Assembly: GCA_037379345.1 (NCBI GenBank)
Contig: CM074524.1
Coordinates: 20,394,750-20,458,749 of the forward strand
Direction: 5' to 3'
DNA: 64,000 nucleotides
DNA from: Perna viridis
Taxonomy: Eukaryota
Shown here piece after piece: positions 17,844 to 29,295 of the stretch. The position numbers and the translations under genes were made by a program. Under the pieces are notes generated by a model, which ran no database searches, was not told where the DNA came from, and saw only the letters and a program-made list of their open reading frames with translations. The number at the start of each line of letters is the position of its first letter. The stretch's first letter is position 1.

Positions 17844-18390
17844 TTCAGAATTGTCAACTTCCTCTCATCTGTGCCAACATCCCCTAAACACCTGCGTATG
17901 GAGTGTTCGTATCACAGCTCATACGTTATGCCAGAGCTTGCCGAAACTACGCAGACTTTTTGTATCGCGCTAGAATTCTAACGAATAGGCTTCTGGATCA
18001 GGGTTATGCTACAAGATTGATGTCATCACTACAGACGTTTAATGGTCTTCATCATGAACTCGTGGATCGCTACGATGTATCCATCTGCGCCATAAAAACT
18101 GATTTGTTCAATGTGTCATAGTTTTTTTCCTCTTTCGTCTGTCCCAGACTTGACTTTTTATGAGCAACTCGGCGGGTGTTTCTAGAAAAACAGACATGAC
18201 GCTTACCTTACCGGTGCACCTGGTCCTTGCCCCCAGTGTCCGAGTTGCTCATTTGCTTTTGTTACCTTGTATGTATGTTTTCAGTTACTTTATGTTCTTT
18301 GTTGTTTATGTCCGTTTTCCATGTCTGGTGTTTGTCCCTGGATTACATTCGTTTGATTACCGCTATAACCTTGGTTCCCTTGATTATTCT
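17844..18390 (+). mobile_element. 5'-truncated Penelope-like retroelement (Naiad-type): RT C-terminus plus 3' UTR
   Basis: Decayed FRIVNF..ICANIP*TPAYGVFVSQLIRYARAC...LLDQGY...RYD...FNVS* resembles a PLE RT thumb. It ends at a stop with no C-terminal GIY-YIG. The 3' UTR is shared with five other copies. Confidence 0.72.
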
Positions 18391-19473: not shown

Positions 19474-19838
19474 TTATGTTGCTACAAGATTGAAGTCATC
19501 ACAACAGAAGTTTTATGGTCGTCATAATGAACTCGTGGATCGTTATGGTATATCCATCTACACCAGAAAAACTGATTTGTTCAACGTGCCATAGTTTTCC
19601 TTTCCTCTTTGGTCTACCCTGGACTTGACTTTTTATGAGCAACTCGGCGGGTGTTTCTAGAAAAGCAGAGGACGCTTACCCTACCAATGCACCTGGTCCA
19701 TGCTCCCAGTTTTTAGTGGAGTTGCGCATTTACTTGTCTTACTTTGTATGTATTATTTTAGTTACTTTATGTTCTTTGTTGTCATTGTCTGTTTTCCATG
19801 TCTGGTCTTTGTCCCTGAATTATATTCTTTTGATTTCC
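19474..19838 (+). mobile_element. Second fragment of the same PLE family
   Basis: YVATRLKSSQQKFYGRHNELVDRYGISIYTRKTDLFNVP* followed by the same 3' UTR. Confidence 0.75.
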
Positions 19839-21479
19839 GAACCGTTTTAGCAAAGAAAGATTTAAATGTTAGTAATGTCTTAAAAGTACTAATGAACCGA
19901 GGTTGTACGTAATCAAAATTTTTCAGTTTGAATTATTTTGGTGCCAAGAAATAAAAGAACATGAAAGTAGACAGCAAAAATATATTGTTCGATGAGAAGT
20001 TTAACCCATGGCTAGTTGGCAAAGAAATGTAAATATCAACAGCAGCCCAGGTGGGTAGGGTCGTTACGTAATCAAAATGTAGTAATCCCGGTTACTCATA
20101 AACAAGTATATGACTGTCGTTAAAGTAATGTAATGTGGGAAGATAAGGTCCAAATTTGGCCGCAAAATCAACTATTTGCGTGAATGAGTTACACACCCAG
20201 CAATAAGCAAAAGTATGAAAAGGTTTTGATTTGATTCATTAGCAGGTATATAATCATTAAGAATCTTTTGCGTTCTCAGTGCACTTTCCCTTCAAGTAAA
20301 GGCATAATGTGCTTGGATGAGTTATGGTAGTTACAACTCATTTAAGCAAATATTGAAATTTAAATGCAGGTCATACCTTTCTTTCGATTCGCAAAAAAAT
20401 AACCAACTTTGATTATTAAATGATGTGACCTGAACTTTCTTTATGATAATATTTTCCTGGTTTATATACACAAATATCTTAGGGATTAAATATTTAACAC
20501 ACGAAGACTCCAATTAACCCAACTTTATAATAAATATACCTTATCAATACTCCAGTCTTTTTTTACATATAATTTCCTGTTCAGAGAAAATAACTTTGGA
20601 AAGCAAATGGAGGATTTTGAAAAAGAGGAATAAAATTATTCTCTTACAAAGTATGCCTTAATTCGTGGCTATCAGCTGATATAACTAAGGGATTATTTGT
20701 TGTTTTTAATACTTTTGTTTTGTTCTGTTTTGTTTTTAATTTTGTTTTGCTTTGGTTTTTTGTTTTCCTTTTTATTTGGGGGGTGTTATGTTTGTGTTTT
20801 GTTTGTTTTGTCATGTTGGGTTATTTTTCGTCGACATCAACAAATAATATGCTTTGATGTATAGTCACGCCATGAAACATTTGCACGATATCTACAGGAT
20901 GAAAGGGTCTGTCTAAGCTTGATGTCTGTTAATATCACTGAGTGCACGTACATCGTCTTTTCATCAATAACAGTAAATATAATGACAATGAATCTTTTTT
21001 TCATTTCCTTTTCATTTTTACACTTGTTTATAAAATGCTGAACAACACTGCCACCTAGGACATTCGTTACTTGAGTTTAAACAAGGACAATATCAACATC
21101 GATTTGTATCCTCAAACGTCAACATGTGCTTCCTTCTCATTTCAAAATGTTTGGATGCGCCCATGATTCAGTATTTATAAGTAGGGATGCACACAGGTGG
21201 GTGGATTGAACAATGTTTGATCATCGACGTAGGTTAACCACACAAAAATAAATTATCTATCACTCAAACATTGCTAAACATCAAACCAGCCATAAAATAA
21301 ATGCATCTGTTCAAAAACCATTAGAGAATTAGATTTTTTAATGTATGCTGACGCATTGCAAATTTGAAAAAAAAAATACTTAAATGCGTGATGTGTTCGA
21401 ATAACCATTGAGTGCATTGCCTGTTTGATATGCAGCTAATGGGGTTACTTTAAAAACCGGCTGTGTGATTGTTAATAAC

Positions 21480-21634
21480 TTAATCGGGTTTATCTAAGTA
21501 AAAGGTAAACCAATTTAATAAAAGAGAAATTAATCTGTTCTTTCACAACGTTAAACCGGAATCCGTTCCGGATGTATCCCGATTTTATATTTACGTCTAA
21601 CGCTGCCATATTTTTTGAAACACCACATCAAAAC
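21480..21634 (+). repeat. Ngaro split direct repeat A1 (155 bp)
   Basis: ttaatcgggtttatctaag...caccacatcaaaac matches 26747-26901, with one C/T difference seen. Confidence 0.95.
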
Positions 21635-21671
21635 AGATAATCAATCCAAGCCATCCTCCTTAAAACGCAGC

Positions 21672-22847
21672 ATGAAACCTGCCAAAAGAAAAAGAGCAGC
21701 CCCTAGAAGGAATCAACAAGACGGAGATGCTACAAAAAACCAGAAAAAGAAGAAGACTTTGCAGACTGCTCAGACGTCATCGTCGCCACGCCAATCCAGA
21801 AAAATACCCTCGACAGCTTCCACGTCGTCCAGCGAAATTGATGCCACTGATGCCCCTACTCAAGATCCCTCGACCAGAAAGTCAACTTTATCTGTGAGCC
21901 ATGGTCCGGTCGTCAATATCATAGCCGATGAAGCATTGCCTCCCATTCCTGATGAGTCTCGTATGCCTGTTCCTGTTACCGCACAAGAGGTCCCACCCCA
22001 GCAAAGCTCGAGTGGAATTGGTAGGTTTATCAATACTTCACAAACCTTAGCACGTCCATTTTACTCTGGGTCTCCTGTTCCCCCCCCCCTTTCCGATCCT
22101 GATACACAAAGGTGTGGCGATATGTCGTACATCAATCAATTGCCCGATTCTGTGTCTAGTGTCTTTACTCCTATATCATCTCACGTCCCAAGTAAAATAA
22201 AAGAGAAAGTATGGGCAGGTGAATTTGTAGATCTAAACTTGCTTCTCAAATCAGCTCGAGATTTAGCAGATAACTGTGAGTTAGATGGAGAGCTCACTAT
22301 AAAAGGGGGTACCCTTGCCGTTGTAAAACAACAAAAAACACAGTTTAAAAACATTGAAACTTGGACTAATGCATTCATGATATATGCAAGCATTATTTTA
22401 GAGAAATGGCCCCAAAAAGGGTTAGAACTTTTCAAATATATGCAAACAATTCGACTTGCAGCCTCCAGGGGCTATTTTCGAGGTTGGGTTCACTATGATG
22501 AACAATACAGGTTGCGTAAAGCGGCGTCCCCAACTTCTTCTTGGGGAATAGTTGATATGGAACTTTGGATGATGTGTGTTTCAACTCCTTATACACCCCC
22601 TTCTCAGTCAGTAGGTCATGGGTCGGTTCAAGACCCTTCAAATCATAGACCTGGACATTCCTCACCAACTTCGTCTGTTTCTGTGGTCAGTTGGGGGCAA
22701 AACAAGACTAGCGCTGGTCAAACAACAGGCCCATGTAGAATGTTTAATAAGGGTTATTGCAAGTTCGGGTCAAAATGTATTTTTACCCATCAATGTAAAA
22801 AATGTAGAAAATATCACCCAATAACAAAATGTCCACAGAATCAATAA
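21672..22847 (+). CDS. Gag-like ORF1 of the Ngaro element
   Basis: First ATG at 21672 (the track start is TTG inside A1). Basic and S/T/P-rich N-terminus; KIKEKVWAGEFVDLNLLL and GWVHYDEQYR motifs typical of DIRS/Ngaro gag; C-terminal zinc fingers CRMFNKGYCKFGSKCIFTHQCKKCRKYHPITKC. Confidence 0.88.
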   Translation: MKPAKRKRAAPRRNQQDGDATKNQKKKKTLQTAQTSSSPRQSRKIPSTASTSSSEIDATDAPTQDPSTRKSTLSVSHGPVVNIIADEALPPIPDESRMPVPVTAQEVPPQQSSSGIGRFINTSQTLARPFYSGSPVPPPLSDPDTQRCGDMSYINQLPDSVSSVFTPISSHVPSKIKEKVWAGEFVDLNLLLKSARDLADNCELDGELTIKGGTLAVVKQQKTQFKNIETWTNAFMIYASIILEKWPQKGLELFKYMQTIRLAASRGYFRGWVHYDEQYRLRKAASPTSSWGIVDMELWMMCVSTPYTPPSQSVGHGSVQDPSNHRPGHSSPTSSVSVVSWGQNKTSAGQTTGPCRMFNKGYCKFGSKCIFTHQCKKCRKYHPITKCPQNQ

Positions 22848-22968
22848 ATCGATTTGAGTCTGACATTAATGACAATGTCATATTATGTAATATTGTAAAT
22901 ATGTTGTGATTACAAATTTATAAATCGAACTTTTTCATTTCAGGATTGACCCGTTTTATATACACTAG

Positions 22969-24552
22969 GTAATTCTCCTATCAGAGTGAGCGAAGTTAAA
23001 AAAGCTCTGAAAAAGTACCCATGTCAAGAAAAAGCATATGCTTTAATTAATGGATTACAATATGGCTTTGATATGAAATACTCAGGTCCCCGGAGACCCT
23101 TTGAAGCTAATGGCAAAAAAATTTTTGGCGAACGTTTACTCGCAGCCAGACAAAAAATTCAGAAAGAAATTTCAATGGGTAGAATAGCCGGTCCATTTAT
23201 TAACCCCCCTTTCCCTACATTTCGAACTTCACCAATCTCTGTAATTCCAAAAAAAATCAAGTTCAGAATTTCGTTTAATACATAATTTGTCATTCACTTC
23301 CCAGAACTCAGTAAACGATTTTATTGAGAGAGAATTCTGTTCCGTATCCTACTCTTCGATCGACGATGCGGTGGACATGATTCAGAAGCTTGGCCCAAAT
23401 TCCTTTCTTGCCAAATGTGATATAAAATCGGCTTTCCGACTGTTCAGAATTTCGCCACAGGATTTTGATTTGTTTGGTTTTAAGTTCGAAAATTTGTATT
23501 ACTTTGATAAGTGTTTACCTATGGAGGCCTCTATAAGTTGTGCCCTATTCGAATCTTTCTCCACTGCCCTTCATTGGTATGTAAAAAAAGAATCAAACTC
23601 TGAGAATATTCTTCACTATTTAGATGATTTTCTATTTGGGGGAGTGTCAGTTCCAGAATGTAAAGAGGTTTTAATTTGCTTCCAGGACTGCTGTAAGTTG
23701 TGGGGCGTTCCTTTAGCGGATGAAAAGACAGTTGAACCTACAGAAATATTAATTTTCTTAGTAGAGTTTGACACTATCAATATGATTATGAGACTCCCTT
23801 TGGAGAAAATAACTGAACTTCGGGAAAAAATTCTGTACTGTCTTGGTTGTTCAAAAATTACGTTAAAAGAATTACAATCCTTATTAGGGTCCCTAAACTT
23901 CGCTTGCCAAGTTGTGGTTCCTGGTAGAGCATTTTGTCGTAGGCTCATTGATGCAACTTGTAACGTACAAAAAAGTTACTATAGAATAAGAGTCACCAAG
24001 GCTATGAAAGACGATTTAGAGGTTTGGTTACAATTCTTGTCGGAATACAATGGGACTACAGTAATTCTAGATAAATTTTGGCCTTCCAATTCTGATTTGA
24101 ATCTTTTTTCGGACAGTGCAGGAGGTAAAGAAAAGGGATTTGGTATTTTCTTTGATAACAGATGGGCTCAGGCCTGTTGGCCTAGTTCTTGGGTTAACTC
24201 TGACATTTTAACCGACATTACCTTTCTGGAATTATTCCCTGTTGTAGTAGCTCTGAACATCTGGGGAGAATTGTTAAGGAATAAACGAATTTTATTTCAC
24301 GTCGACAATCAAGCAATTGTTGCAATTGTCAACAAAAAATCATCCCGTTCTCCACGAGTTATGTCATTAGTCAGGAAACTTGTTTTGGACTGTTTAAAAT
24401 ATAACATACTAATAAAATGTGAACACATCCCCGGAGTTATGAATAAAGTATGTGATGCTCTTTCTCGTTGTGATTTTCAGAAGTTCCAGACTCTTTGTCC
24501 GACTGCCGAACCACGTCCATGCGCCATTCCATCCCATCTTTGGAAAATTTAA
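22969..24552 (+). pseudogene. Reverse transcriptase/RNase H of the Ngaro element, frameshifted at an A8 run (23249-23256)
   Basis: Track ORFs 22986-23285 and 23287-24552 join as SPISVIPKK-SSSEFRLIHNLS if one A is removed. Motifs: KCDIKSAFR, YLDDF, LQSLLGSLNF, FSDSAG, ITFLELFPV, HVDNQA, HIPGVMNKVCDALSR. Confidence 0.93.
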
Positions 24553-25457
24553 AAGTCGAAACGAATTCTTTATTCGATAGTTCCATGGCTTCGAGTTCCT
24601 GGAAGACTTATAGAACAGCAGTCGCTTCTTTTCAAAATTTCTGCTCGCTTTATAATTTTGATGTTATTTGGCCAATCCCCGTAGAGTTATTGTCCCATTA
24701 CATTGCATTTCTTTCTTGTGAGGGTAAATCTTTTTCAACTGTCTCTACTTACCTTTCAGCTCTGAGTTACGCTCACAAATTAAATAATGTTATTGACAAC
24801 ACTAAATCTTTTCTCGTTACAAAGTTGTTACAAGGTTTTCGCAGGAAAAATCCAACAAAACCCGACATAAGAATTCCGATTACTTTTGATCTACTAAAAA
24901 AGCTTATTTCCTCGTTACAATGGATCTGTCACTCCGATTACGAATCATACATGTTTGCCTCCACCTTTTCTCTAGCCTACTTTGCCTTATTAAGGGTAGG
25001 AGAATTTGCCGTAACAACAACTGACAATGAAAGTGGACACGCTCTCGATCTTCGAGATATCTCTTTTTTAGATAAAAATACAGTTTTGCATGCCAATATT
25101 CGCAGTTCTAAAACAGATCAAAAGCGATCCTCAATTAAGCTTATATTAACAAAGCAGGAAAATGTATCAGTTTGTCCAATTTTTCTGTTACATCGTTATT
25201 TGTCTATCCGTTTCTCGGGTCAAAATGGTTCTGAAAAACTTTTTGTTCATTTTAACGGCAAGCCTTTGACAAAATATCAGTTTTGTGCTATGCTGGAGAA
25301 ATCTCTAAAGTTTTGCGAGATACCATTACACATTCGCTCACATTCTTTCAGAATAGGCCGTGCGTCCGATCTAGCTAAAGAGGGCATAGACGACGAGGCA
25401 ATTAAAAAATTGGGTCGCTGGAAATCTAGTTGTTTTGAGAGATATATTCGTCTTTAA
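24519..25457 (+). CDS. Tyrosine recombinase of the Ngaro element
   Basis: Catalytic motifs present: LLRVGE (R), SKTD (K), HSFRIG (HxxR), GRWKS (W), RYIR (Y). Overlaps the end of RNase H. Confidence 0.95.
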   Translation: MRHSIPSLENLKVETNSLFDSSMASSSWKTYRTAVASFQNFCSLYNFDVIWPIPVELLSHYIAFLSCEGKSFSTVSTYLSALSYAHKLNNVIDNTKSFLVTKLLQGFRRKNPTKPDIRIPITFDLLKKLISSLQWICHSDYESYMFASTFSLAYFALLRVGEFAVTTTDNESGHALDLRDISFLDKNTVLHANIRSSKTDQKRSSIKLILTKQENVSVCPIFLLHRYLSIRFSGQNGSEKLFVHFNGKPLTKYQFCAMLEKSLKFCEIPLHIRSHSFRIGRASDLAKEGIDDEAIKKLGRWKSSCFERYIRL

Positions 25458-25528
25458 ATTCGATCTGTTTTGCGAGTTTACATGTACTTCTGACTGATTC
25501 ATTTTTATTACAATTTCCTAATTTTTAG

Positions 25529-26124
25529 GTTCAAAATCTGTTTGGATTTTTGGCTCATCGATTGTTTATTGGGCCCGTAGACGAGCTGACTTTCGCACTG
25601 GGGGGATCCACCTTGGACTGCAAAGGCTAGGATATGTTGTTAGATGGTTCGGGGAAAGAAGAATGAAATGGAGTGAGTTGTCGGCCACAGTCTCGCGTGC
25701 TAGAGAGAAATATCCACTTCCCGCTATGATCGTAATACACCTTGGGTCTAATGATATTGGTTTACGGCCTTGTTCTGATATAATAGATGATATCAAAACA
25801 GACACCCTTAGATTTAAATTATTATTTCCTAATACCAGAGTCATTTGGAGTGAACTTCTGATGAGACGGTACTGGCATAGCGCAACAAAAAGTGGCACTC
25901 GCTTAGAGAAGGTCCGAAAACGCATAAACACTGCAATAAAAAATTTCTATTTAACTGAGGGCCTTGCCGAGATAAGACACCCGAATATTAGAGCATCTGA
26001 GATCGACCTCTACCGGTTTGATGGGGTTCACTTGACCGATCTCGGAAATGACGTACTTCTAAACAACTTTGAAGGTGCTTTGGAAACCTTTTTATCCTCA
26101 CCCGATGTTCGTTCATTCCCTTAG
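25529..26124 (+). CDS. SGNH/GDSL hydrolase (esterase) ORF of the Ngaro element; probably spliced in, as no ATG precedes block I
   Basis: Frame extends 44 codons upstream of the track ATG (SKSVWIFGSSIVYWARRR..., block I). Also HLGSND (block III) and DGVHL (block V). In-frame TAA at 25519 and acceptor atttttAG at 25527-25528. Confidence 0.88.
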
Positions 26125-26252
26125 GATTGTCACATTCGTTAATATATGTTATCAAATGTTGAAAGGAATATAAATGATTTATTATTTGAAGCGGTAGGGC
26201 CGCGGGGGGGGGGGGGGGTAAGATATTTAAACGTGTATAGACACGCCCATTT

Positions 26253-26750
26253 GGCGGAATCTGGTAAGATAAGGGGACACTATCCTTTCCTTAATTGTAC
26301 GTCGGGTCATATCAATAAAACTTTCCTACGCTTTACCGTTGGAAGTTGGTCTAGACCATCTCATGCCTCCATGAGTGGTCGGTTCTTTTCTGATCACCAG
26401 ATTGAATTTGGCCAGGGTATTCTAAATACAAATAAATAATCAAAATAAATAATAAACTCACTCCCATGTTTTTATAAATATTAAATGAAAAAAGTGGTTT
26501 CTACCATGGGGTGACAAATGGTATGGGCTGGCGTACTGGAAAATCGTGTCCCTCGTTCTCTCAAGGTACCTTGAGGAATGTGAGCATCCATTGTTTACCA
26601 ATGGTGCACAGAGTTGTCCGTATACCCCTGCGTTTGGCATTCTGTTTCCCTATCTTGTCAATTCCTCTCTTGCAGTGAGCTGTGGCCGTTATTAGCCATT
26701 TATATTGTTTCTTGAATTTTTATAAGCCAAACAATTGATTCTTTGATTAA
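26253..26750 (+). repeat. Ngaro split direct repeat B1 (498 bp)
   Basis: ggcggaatctgg...ctttgattaa matches 27334-27831, with one T/C difference seen. Contains clustered AATAAA motifs. Confidence 0.95.
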
Positions 26751-26901
26751 TCGGGTTTATCTAAGTAAAAGGTAAACCAATTTAATAAAAGAGAAATTAA
26801 TCTGTTCTTTCACAACGTTAAACCGGAATCCGTTTCGGATGTATCCCGATTTTATATTTACGTCTAACGCTGCCATATTTTTTGAAACACCACATCAAAA
26901 C
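26747..26901 (+). repeat. Ngaro split direct repeat A2
   Basis: Copy of A1, joined to B1 through a shared TTAA. Confidence 0.95.
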
Positions 26902-26963
26902 CCCTCCATCCTCCCCTTCCACATTTACCACCTGTTGCTGCTGCTGTTTTATAATTTTTTCAG

Positions 26964-27172
26964 GGTCAAAACATTCGATCGACTTAAACTTCCGGGGATC
27001 TGAGAGTTTCGAGCAGAGTAGACTGTTAAATGAGGAAATCCTCATGAACTTTTGTGAATACAGACTCTGGACACTCAAACTGGTTGTGAATCCGACAGAT
27101 CAGCTCGGAGAATACGAACTCATGGACAACAACATTGGTTTGGAGACTGTTTCTTTAATTGGATTTGTTTAA
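26964..27172 (+). CDS. Candidate extra exon/ORF (~69 aa, unknown function) in the A2-B2 spacer
   Basis: Acceptor ttttataattttttcAG (26962-26963), open phase-1 frame GSKHSIDLNFRG...SLIGFV*, then an AT-rich tract and AATAAA at 27305. Confidence 0.45.
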
Positions 27173-27333
27173 TGATTTTGATTTATTTTATGATGCACCA
27201 AAGACTGACTTAAAACGTTAAATTTTAGCTAATTTGATTTCATTTTTATTGTATTATTATATATATATATTTTCAGAATAACTTGTGTCATAAATATAAT
27301 TAATAATAAACAGTTCTTGTCACAGTCTGTCTG

Positions 27334-27831
27334 GGCGGAATCTGGCAAGATAAGGGGACACTATCCTTTCCTTAATTGTACGTCGGGTCATATCAATAAA
27401 ACTTTCCTACGCTTTACCGTTGGAAGTTGGTCTAGACCATCTCATGCCTCCATGAGTGGTCGGTTCTTTTCTGATCACCAGATTGAATTTGGCCAGGGTA
27501 TTCTAAATACAAATAAATAATCAAAATAAATAATAAACTCACTCCCATGTTTTTATAAATATTAAATGAAAAAAGTGGTTTCTACCATGGGGTGACAAAT
27601 GGTATGGGCTGGCGTACTGGAAAATCGTGTCCCTCGTTCTCTCAAGGTACCTTGAGGAATGTGAGCATCCATTGTTTACCAATGGTGCACAGAGTTGTCC
27701 GTATACCCCTGCGTTTGGCATTCTGTTTCCCTATCTTGTCAATTCCTCTCTTGCAGTGAGCTGTGGCCGTTATTAGCCATTTATATTGTTTCTTGAATTT
27801 TTATAAGCCAAACAATTGATTCTTTGATTAA
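27334..27831 (+). repeat. Ngaro split direct repeat B2
   Basis: Copy of B1, ending in TTAA at the right boundary of the element. Confidence 0.95.
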
Positions 27832-29161: not shown

Positions 29162-29295
29162 AAGAGTAACCAAGGGAACCAATTTTATTGCGGTAATCAA
29201 AAGAATGTCATCCAGGGACAAAGACTAGACATGGAAAACAGACATACACAACAAAGAACATAAAGTAACTAAAATCATACATACAAAGTTACAAA
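29162..29295 (-). mobile_element. Short 3'-end copy of the PLE family
   Basis: Reverse complement of the shared 3' UTR (gacatggaaaacagacatacacaacaaagaacataaagtaac). Confidence 0.75.

Follow-up and report, generated by a model that had tools for sequence, protein, structure and literature searches.

A short unique stretch lies between the inner and the terminal repeat of TOC1 of Chlamydomonas. In Xenopus, the hydrolase-bearing Ngaro retrotransposons DIRS-53_XT and DIRS-54_XT have the order A1-gag-RT/RH-YR-SGNH-B1-A2-B2 with near-identical repeat pairs, as does the element described here, but the available text on them gives neither an A2-B2 spacer nor splicing (PMC9210276), whereas the elements of this study have spacers of 235-830 bp with conserved ends. 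Nematode-form PAT and Kangaroo have unique sequence separating their inner repeats from the final one, and are thus a precedent for a filled A2-B2 interval; in the part of that account available, the interval holds a conserved tyrosine recombinase (YR) gene (PMC4157794), whereas the spacers of the six families considered here (F1-F6) hold no conserved protein. VIPER/SIRE of Trypanosoma cruzi has split direct repeats as well, and SIRE consists of A2, a unique region, and B2, like solo A-spacer-B copies of F2-F6; however, the unique part of SIRE is about 30 bp, and VIPER differs in YR clade, gene order, and trypanosome RNA processing, according to the sections available (PMC6681497). Ngaro elements of Cafeteria are arranged A1-ORFs-B1A2B2, with isolated AB repeats likened to solo LTRs, and the accessible portion of the report mentions no spacer (PMC8547959), while here there are two half forms, A-ORFs-B and A-spacer-B. 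Literature searches, outside whose scope lay the founding papers and Repbase, turned up no Ngaro spacer described as having a conserved acceptor or poly(A) signal. The question of how the RNA ends behind the B1-A2 joint is not addressed in the available parts of PMC9210276, PMC8547959, PMC4157794, PMC6681497, PMC7192593, PMC3783388, PMC9341512, or PMC5408684. Viral contigs held no relative, and of ten metagenome loci the eight inspected had no A2-spacer-B2.

The window, which is the whole 64,000-nucleotide stretch of Perna viridis DNA that was analysed, contains at positions 21480-27831 a Ngaro-type tyrosine-recombinase retrotransposon, here family F1. Its parts, in window coordinates, are as follows.

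21480-21634, plus strand: repeat A1, 155 bp, the element's left end, 99% identity to A2
21672-22020, plus strand: gag 5' leader exon, 116 codons plus 1 nt, basic and S/T/P-rich, with a phase-1 donor at its end (TTG/GTAGGT, the slash marking the exon end)
21672-22847, plus strand: gag ORF with a C-terminal CCCH zinc finger (zf-CCCH E ~0.001, under the curated cut-off)
22944-24552, plus strand: RT/RNase H region (RVT_1 E 1.7e-9), with an acceptor-like site at 22942-22943 in front
24474-25457, plus strand: tyrosine recombinase ORF (Phage_integrase E 2.5e-11), with a phase-1 acceptor-like site at 24479-24480
25529-26124, plus strand: SGNH/GDSL esterase exon, acceptor at 25527-25528 (Pfam GDSL E 0.0015, a weak match)
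26253-26750, plus strand: repeat B1, 498 bp, 99.8% identity to B2
26747-26901, plus strand: repeat A2, the 155-bp A repeat, 99% identity to A1
26902-27333, plus strand: unique spacer, 432 bp, between A2 and B2
26902-26963, plus strand: conserved 5' part of the spacer, a C-rich tract, then TGCTG, a T-rich stretch, and an acceptor-like TTTCAG
26964-27172, plus strand: phase-1 open frame of 69 codons (a split Gly and 68 codons to 27169, stop at 27170-27172), in F1 only
27173-27333, plus strand: AT-rich trailer with AATAAA at 27305-27310, 23 nt before B2, and GTCACAGT
27334-27831, plus strand: repeat B2, right end of the element

The order A1, gag with CCCH finger, RT/RNase H, YR, SGNH esterase, B1, A2, spacer, B2 has the features of Ngaro elements in the order DIRS: split direct repeats (A1-ORFs-B1-A2-B2, here with the 432-bp A2-B2 spacer added), RT/RNase H followed by the tyrosine recombinase with the inner repeats 3' of it, and an SGNH hydrolase after the YR as in animal members. 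The nearest named relatives of the esterase are Mytilus proteins named SGNH hydrolase, at 54-55% identity, and no methyltransferase family was matched in the six ORFs scanned in the F1 element. The RT/RNase H region of the window copy (22944-24552) carries frameshifts. Copies of F1 start at or near TTAA/TAA and finish in TTAA (window 21476-21483 and 27828-27831); these ends equal the sequence of the B1-A2 joint, as would fit a recombinase that inserts at a short core common to both partners. Elsewhere in the window, at 18007-18390, 19480-19839, and 29163-29295, are fragments of a different dispersed repeat, 86-91% alike and in both orientations.

A genome search with the spacer matched 11 places, all at 97-100% identity, and 11 of the 20 known F1 copies carry it, the other nine stopping at B1; the repeat search, with 40 of its 66 candidates scored, gave at least 11 B1-A2 joints and at least nine copies ending at B1 (all nine checked). 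These nine have the half form A-ORFs-B (e.g., L053-L057 and L185-L188). The other half form, the SIRE-like solo A-spacer-B, is found in F2-F6 (e.g., L095, L100, L104, L125, and L216) and in none of the 11 spacer copies of F1. Both may have arisen when a two-joint circle resolved into two, or else when repeats recombined. Fifteen large internal deletions were counted among the 19 F1 copies examined. Eight of the 15 start in gag at 22593-22730 and end near the esterase end at 25868-26114, a hotspot with different bases each time, and deleted copies of this kind are among those transcribed. In L053, L054, and L196 the deletion starts exactly at the end of A1 (21634-21639) with 3-5 nt of microhomology, looking as if the template had been switched where A ends.

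Searching the genome for relatives of the esterase, the YR, and the B repeats yielded five more Ngaro families, F2-F6, with RTs about 35-62% identical to that of F1 where an RT was found (none was retrieved for F5). The A2-B2 spacer had been presented as a departure from the usual B1-A2-B2 end, but it is not unusual in this genome, where each of the six families examined has one, measuring 432 bp in F1, about 450 bp in F6, 500 bp in F4, 830 bp in F5, 235 bp in F3, and 340-405 bp in F2. In one F3 locus, L098 (G000:C2:3415000-3424500), the arrangement is B-A-spacer-B-A-spacer-B, with two tandem spacer units. At L106 and L108, B repeats of the F5 type follow non-coding DNA in which units of about 34 bp are repeated in a long tandem array, and these loci are probably a non-autonomous derivative.

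The spacers resemble each other at their ends. All families have a C-rich tract where A ends and the spacer starts, then a T-rich stretch and YAG, which lies 60-83 nt after A in F1 and F3-F6 and further in for F2; in F1 this acceptor-like sequence, TTTTTTCAG, finishes at 26963. The acceptor AG is kept in 11/11 copies of F1, 4/4 of F6, 3/3 of F4, 16/17 of F5, 4/4 of F3, and 2/4 of F2, and is missing from one divergent F4-like copy. When the first 62 nt of the spacer were compared with F1, shuffles did as well in 0, 0, 0, 2, and 11 of 400 trials for the five families, although mononucleotide shuffles overstate this likeness, to which the C-rich-then-T-rich composition contributes. The next 150 nt gave no alignment above shuffles in any of the five comparisons (115-359 of 400). 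A combined F1 and F4 pattern has 12 matches in the genome, of which ten are in F1 and two in F5, and its reversed control has none; comparable T-rich TTTYAG sequences occur at 0.09 per kb in the window flanks. At the other end, five of the six families carry AATAAA some 20-35 nt ahead of B2 (the F3 spacer is without it), and F1 shares with its sister family F6 an end running from AATAAA to GTCACAGT. The AT-rich trailer with AATAAA noted in the preliminary description is present, with 22% GC in the trailer. The spacer is thus real, its ends, which look like RNA-processing signals, are conserved, and a fifth gene is not supported.

The reading to which a little more than even weight is given is that the spacer is a non-coding terminal-exon or 3'-end cassette, by which the RNA would pass B1 and end near B2. 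According to the available part of PMC7192593, the internal region is required in DIRS-1, and by the same token the RNA would have to carry the B1-A2 joint in order to rebuild the ends. Replication would thus need an RNA with the inner joint, and B1 would have to be read through although it is equal to B2. If the signals lie in unique sequence immediately ahead of B2, B1 could be read through and the RNA finished at or inside B2. The 69-codon frame would be a by-product, or at most supply a variable tail when the leader is occasionally spliced to the spacer. In general, an upstream 3' splice site helps to define a poly(A) site. What was found is a putative 3' splice site conserved upstream, and, in five of the six families, AATAAA close to the end.

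The conserved 5' part could instead be a cis element for reverse transcription, its likeness to an acceptor being incidental. The C-rich tract behind A2 would then pair with a G-rich tract before B1, looping out B1-A2, or would act in priming or template switching. This is improbable. The predicted duplex is better than with shuffled partners in F1 (0/300), F5 (0/300), and F4 (7/300), including in F5 a 9-bp pairing of GGGGATGGA with TCCATCCCC, but there is no such excess in F2, F3, and F6 (48-59/300), and cognate pairs are no better than cross-family pairs. The three deleted copies that break exactly at the end of A1 would mark the A boundary as a switching point; however, the invariant TTTCAG is left unexplained, the fold of the whole spacer is not unusual (z 0.16), and the spacer has no Rfam match. 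A hairpin or G-rich tract directly before B1 (window 26200-26252) was seen in all six families, with an equivalent in L159; the hairpins are strong in F2 and F3 (about -16 kcal/mol, calculated with no shuffle control). This feature may set the left border of B.

The frame in the spacer had been proposed to encode an undescribed accessory protein. The spacer, the acceptor-like site, the 69-codon frame, and the peptide are all as originally described, and the F1 frame is longer than expected by chance. When the 370 nt 3' of the acceptor were shuffled 5000 times by dinucleotides, a 68-codon run in the acceptor phase appeared in 0.6% of cases, and in 1.5% when the frame alone was shuffled, i.e., about 1%, with 8.5% for any plus-strand frame. 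The GC content drops from 41% within the frame to 22% in the trailer, and the step falls at the stop. The frame was also said to have a coding-like composition, which was not found beyond GC: its codon usage relative to the element's own genes has z = 0.5, matched by 29% of shuffles, in a test that is itself weak (RT chunks z 0.8-2.3, YR chunks negative). The peptide begins with G-S-K as the esterase exon does; the match is real, but it amounts to one shared 6-mer after the split codon, and in the sister families the esterase and spacer exons begin differently from the shared start of F1. The spacer exon was also considered as a degenerate duplicate of the esterase exon, a reading that was dropped, as they have that 6-mer in common and no more. 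A single-sequence structure model places a helix at residues 13-41 with moderate confidence (mean pLDDT 63.6, pTM 0.41). The 116-residue frame had a sub-threshold match to ME53 in Pfam (E 0.059), which was taken as chance.

In F1 the frame is open in 10 of the 11 spacer copies and broken in one truncated copy. Because the copies are 97-100% identical, an open frame in them is inherited and not selected. They differ within the frame by seven nonsynonymous and two synonymous changes and one indel, in a family too young for dN/dS, and the esterase gene in the same young copies has 19 nonsynonymous and three synonymous changes and three stops. An equivalent ORF in the other Ngaro families was not found: none of F2-F6 has retained the frame, though most of their copies are old solo or deleted ones, whose master may have lost a frame that an active element had. 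Phase 1 runs for 69 codons before the first stop in F1, compared with 4 in F6, 10, 10, and 46 in F4, 7 in F3, and about 34 in F2. In F6, the closest family, TGA is at the same aligned place, codon 5, in all four copies. In F5, where 17 near-full copies out of 30 loci were aligned, phase 1 has 9-10 codons, with a stop at codon 10 in 15 of 16 copies, and shared stops number 11, 13, and 11 in the three frames, equal in all. A long protein-like frame in the F5 spacer was dropped for its shared stops at codons 10, 48, 56, and 123. Further in, behind shared stops, the F5 spacer has a 66-codon stretch with no stop; long open frames in A2-B2 spacers are thus not genes by default.

No homologue of the 68-residue peptide was found in 1.84 billion representatives, a 5.8-billion collection (two length ranges), the PDB, or the rest of the genome, and comparisons with sister-spacer frames did not exceed shuffles (0/12 and 0/12). 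Short resemblances, LVVNP to LMVNP in F4 and LWTL to LWIL in F6, looked like homology and failed against shuffles. A conserved protein domain in the 69 codons, acting as a regulator or silencing antagonist from inside the terminal repeats, has on its side the open frame in F1 copies, the length of the frame, the step in GC, and the modelled helix. It is nevertheless very improbable, given a frame closed at codon 5 in F6 and short in the other four families, no homologue in the collections searched, near-identical copies with mainly nonsynonymous changes, and no spliced read. A product of the leader plus 69 residues that is specific to this family may still exist.

The splicing logic of the preliminary description is right for the esterase. 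Copy L184 (G000:C5:26692300-26695700) is intron-less, with 22020 joined to 25529 exactly at GT..AG and the frame open from the gag ATG through the entire esterase; among the 15 large internal deletions it is the one that fits GT..AG. A second intron-less copy joining the gag leader to the esterase, L063 (G000:C1, near 6110470), belongs to F6. The GT of its join is present in four of four unspliced F6 copies, but the sole unspliced copy with the acceptor side reads AA, not AG. Phase-1 acceptor-like sites stand before the esterase in most families and before RT and YR in several; that of the RT is in phase 1 in F1 copies L055 and L056. In Mytilus, gene models, which are predictions, have RT and esterase exons beginning at the same places. 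The available part of PMC9341512 has nothing on DIRS splicing. With the intron-less gag-esterase copies, the way in which the unexplained esterase is expressed is proven at the DNA level.

From the same donor, 22020 would join the spacer frame in phase, for 185 residues in all. The spacer acceptor may be considered as one more alternative acceptor, the fourth, for the donor of the gag leader, a doubtful proposal with some chance of being correct. The mRNA would then encode a free 116-residue basic leader, as the working part, with a short family-specific tail (69 residues here), and, since the splice removes the B1-A2 joint, an RNA that is not copyable and would be a regulator or a splice sink. 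The donor is proven by L184, with L063 as a second case, and the spacer site in F1 has the same phase (1) as the acceptors of RT, YR, and esterase. Processed copies at the spacer acceptor would not be expected, because such RNA is without B1-A2, and no match in the spacer search begins at the acceptor, which counts against its use. The "strong acceptor" of the preliminary description stands as an acceptor-like site conserved across families, but no read or contig joins into it. A candidate donor just before B1, whose use would remove B1-A2, is present in F1, F2, and L159 and not in F3-F5, and RNA gave no support for it. Donor scores were computed with approximate frequencies. The wider version is a four-way splicing switch in animal Ngaro elements, in which one gag leader would be joined to RT, YR, esterase, or spacer, the non-copyable leader RNA would throttle the element, and the tail would have become, in this young family, a novel domain of 69 residues, a nascent gene within the terminal repeats; this is a long shot.

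RNA was examined in run X21, of which about 19% of the raw reads were read and 1863 placed, on one strand. Depth over the spacer in three bins was 165, 108, and 45. Seven joints were seen, namely five internal deletions, one from A to gag, and one from the spacer to B (19 reads). None enters 26964 or leaves 22020, with a donor depth of 70-94 and an acceptor depth of about 110-165, and no splice of any kind was seen. The missing 22020-26964 joint weighs against the spacer acceptor as a partner of the leader, as does its continued absence where internally deleted copies with both sites are transcribed. With a depth of 1-3 over the YR, there is almost no expression of intact elements in X21. In all seven other runs, contigs cross the acceptor unspliced and hold no such joint, the runs being only guessed to be RNA and possibly holding DNA. 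Spliced RNA into the acceptor was thus seen neither in the raw-read run nor in the seven contig sets, in which no other splice joint was seen either. Depth in X21 was as high behind A2 (108) as behind A1 (106) and higher than before B1 (39), a hint that A holds a promoter and that a short A2-spacer-B2 RNA exists, although 3' bias could explain the depth too. The 19 reads that run from the spacer into B extend up to 72 nt, and seven reads have a loose end behind 27312 with A's at the end that do not match the window.

For the terminal-exon cassette, then, there is the presence of a spacer in six of six families, and an acceptor AG mostly kept despite RTs that have diverged so far from that of F1. 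The activity of the acceptor is read from its conservation alone, because no X21 read uses it at the depth reached there. The B repeat lacks AATAAA in F2, F4, F5, and F6. On the other side, the 19 reads in X21 go past AATAAA, and many RNAs pass it; the B repeat of F1 has four AATAAA, F3 has AATAAA in B and none in the spacer, and the length of the F1 frame exceeds chance at the level given above. The cassette and the use of the spacer site as a fourth acceptor can both hold. If the cassette is real, it would be a concrete answer, consisting of two short motifs, to how the RNA of such an element ends behind B1-A2 when B1 equals B2.
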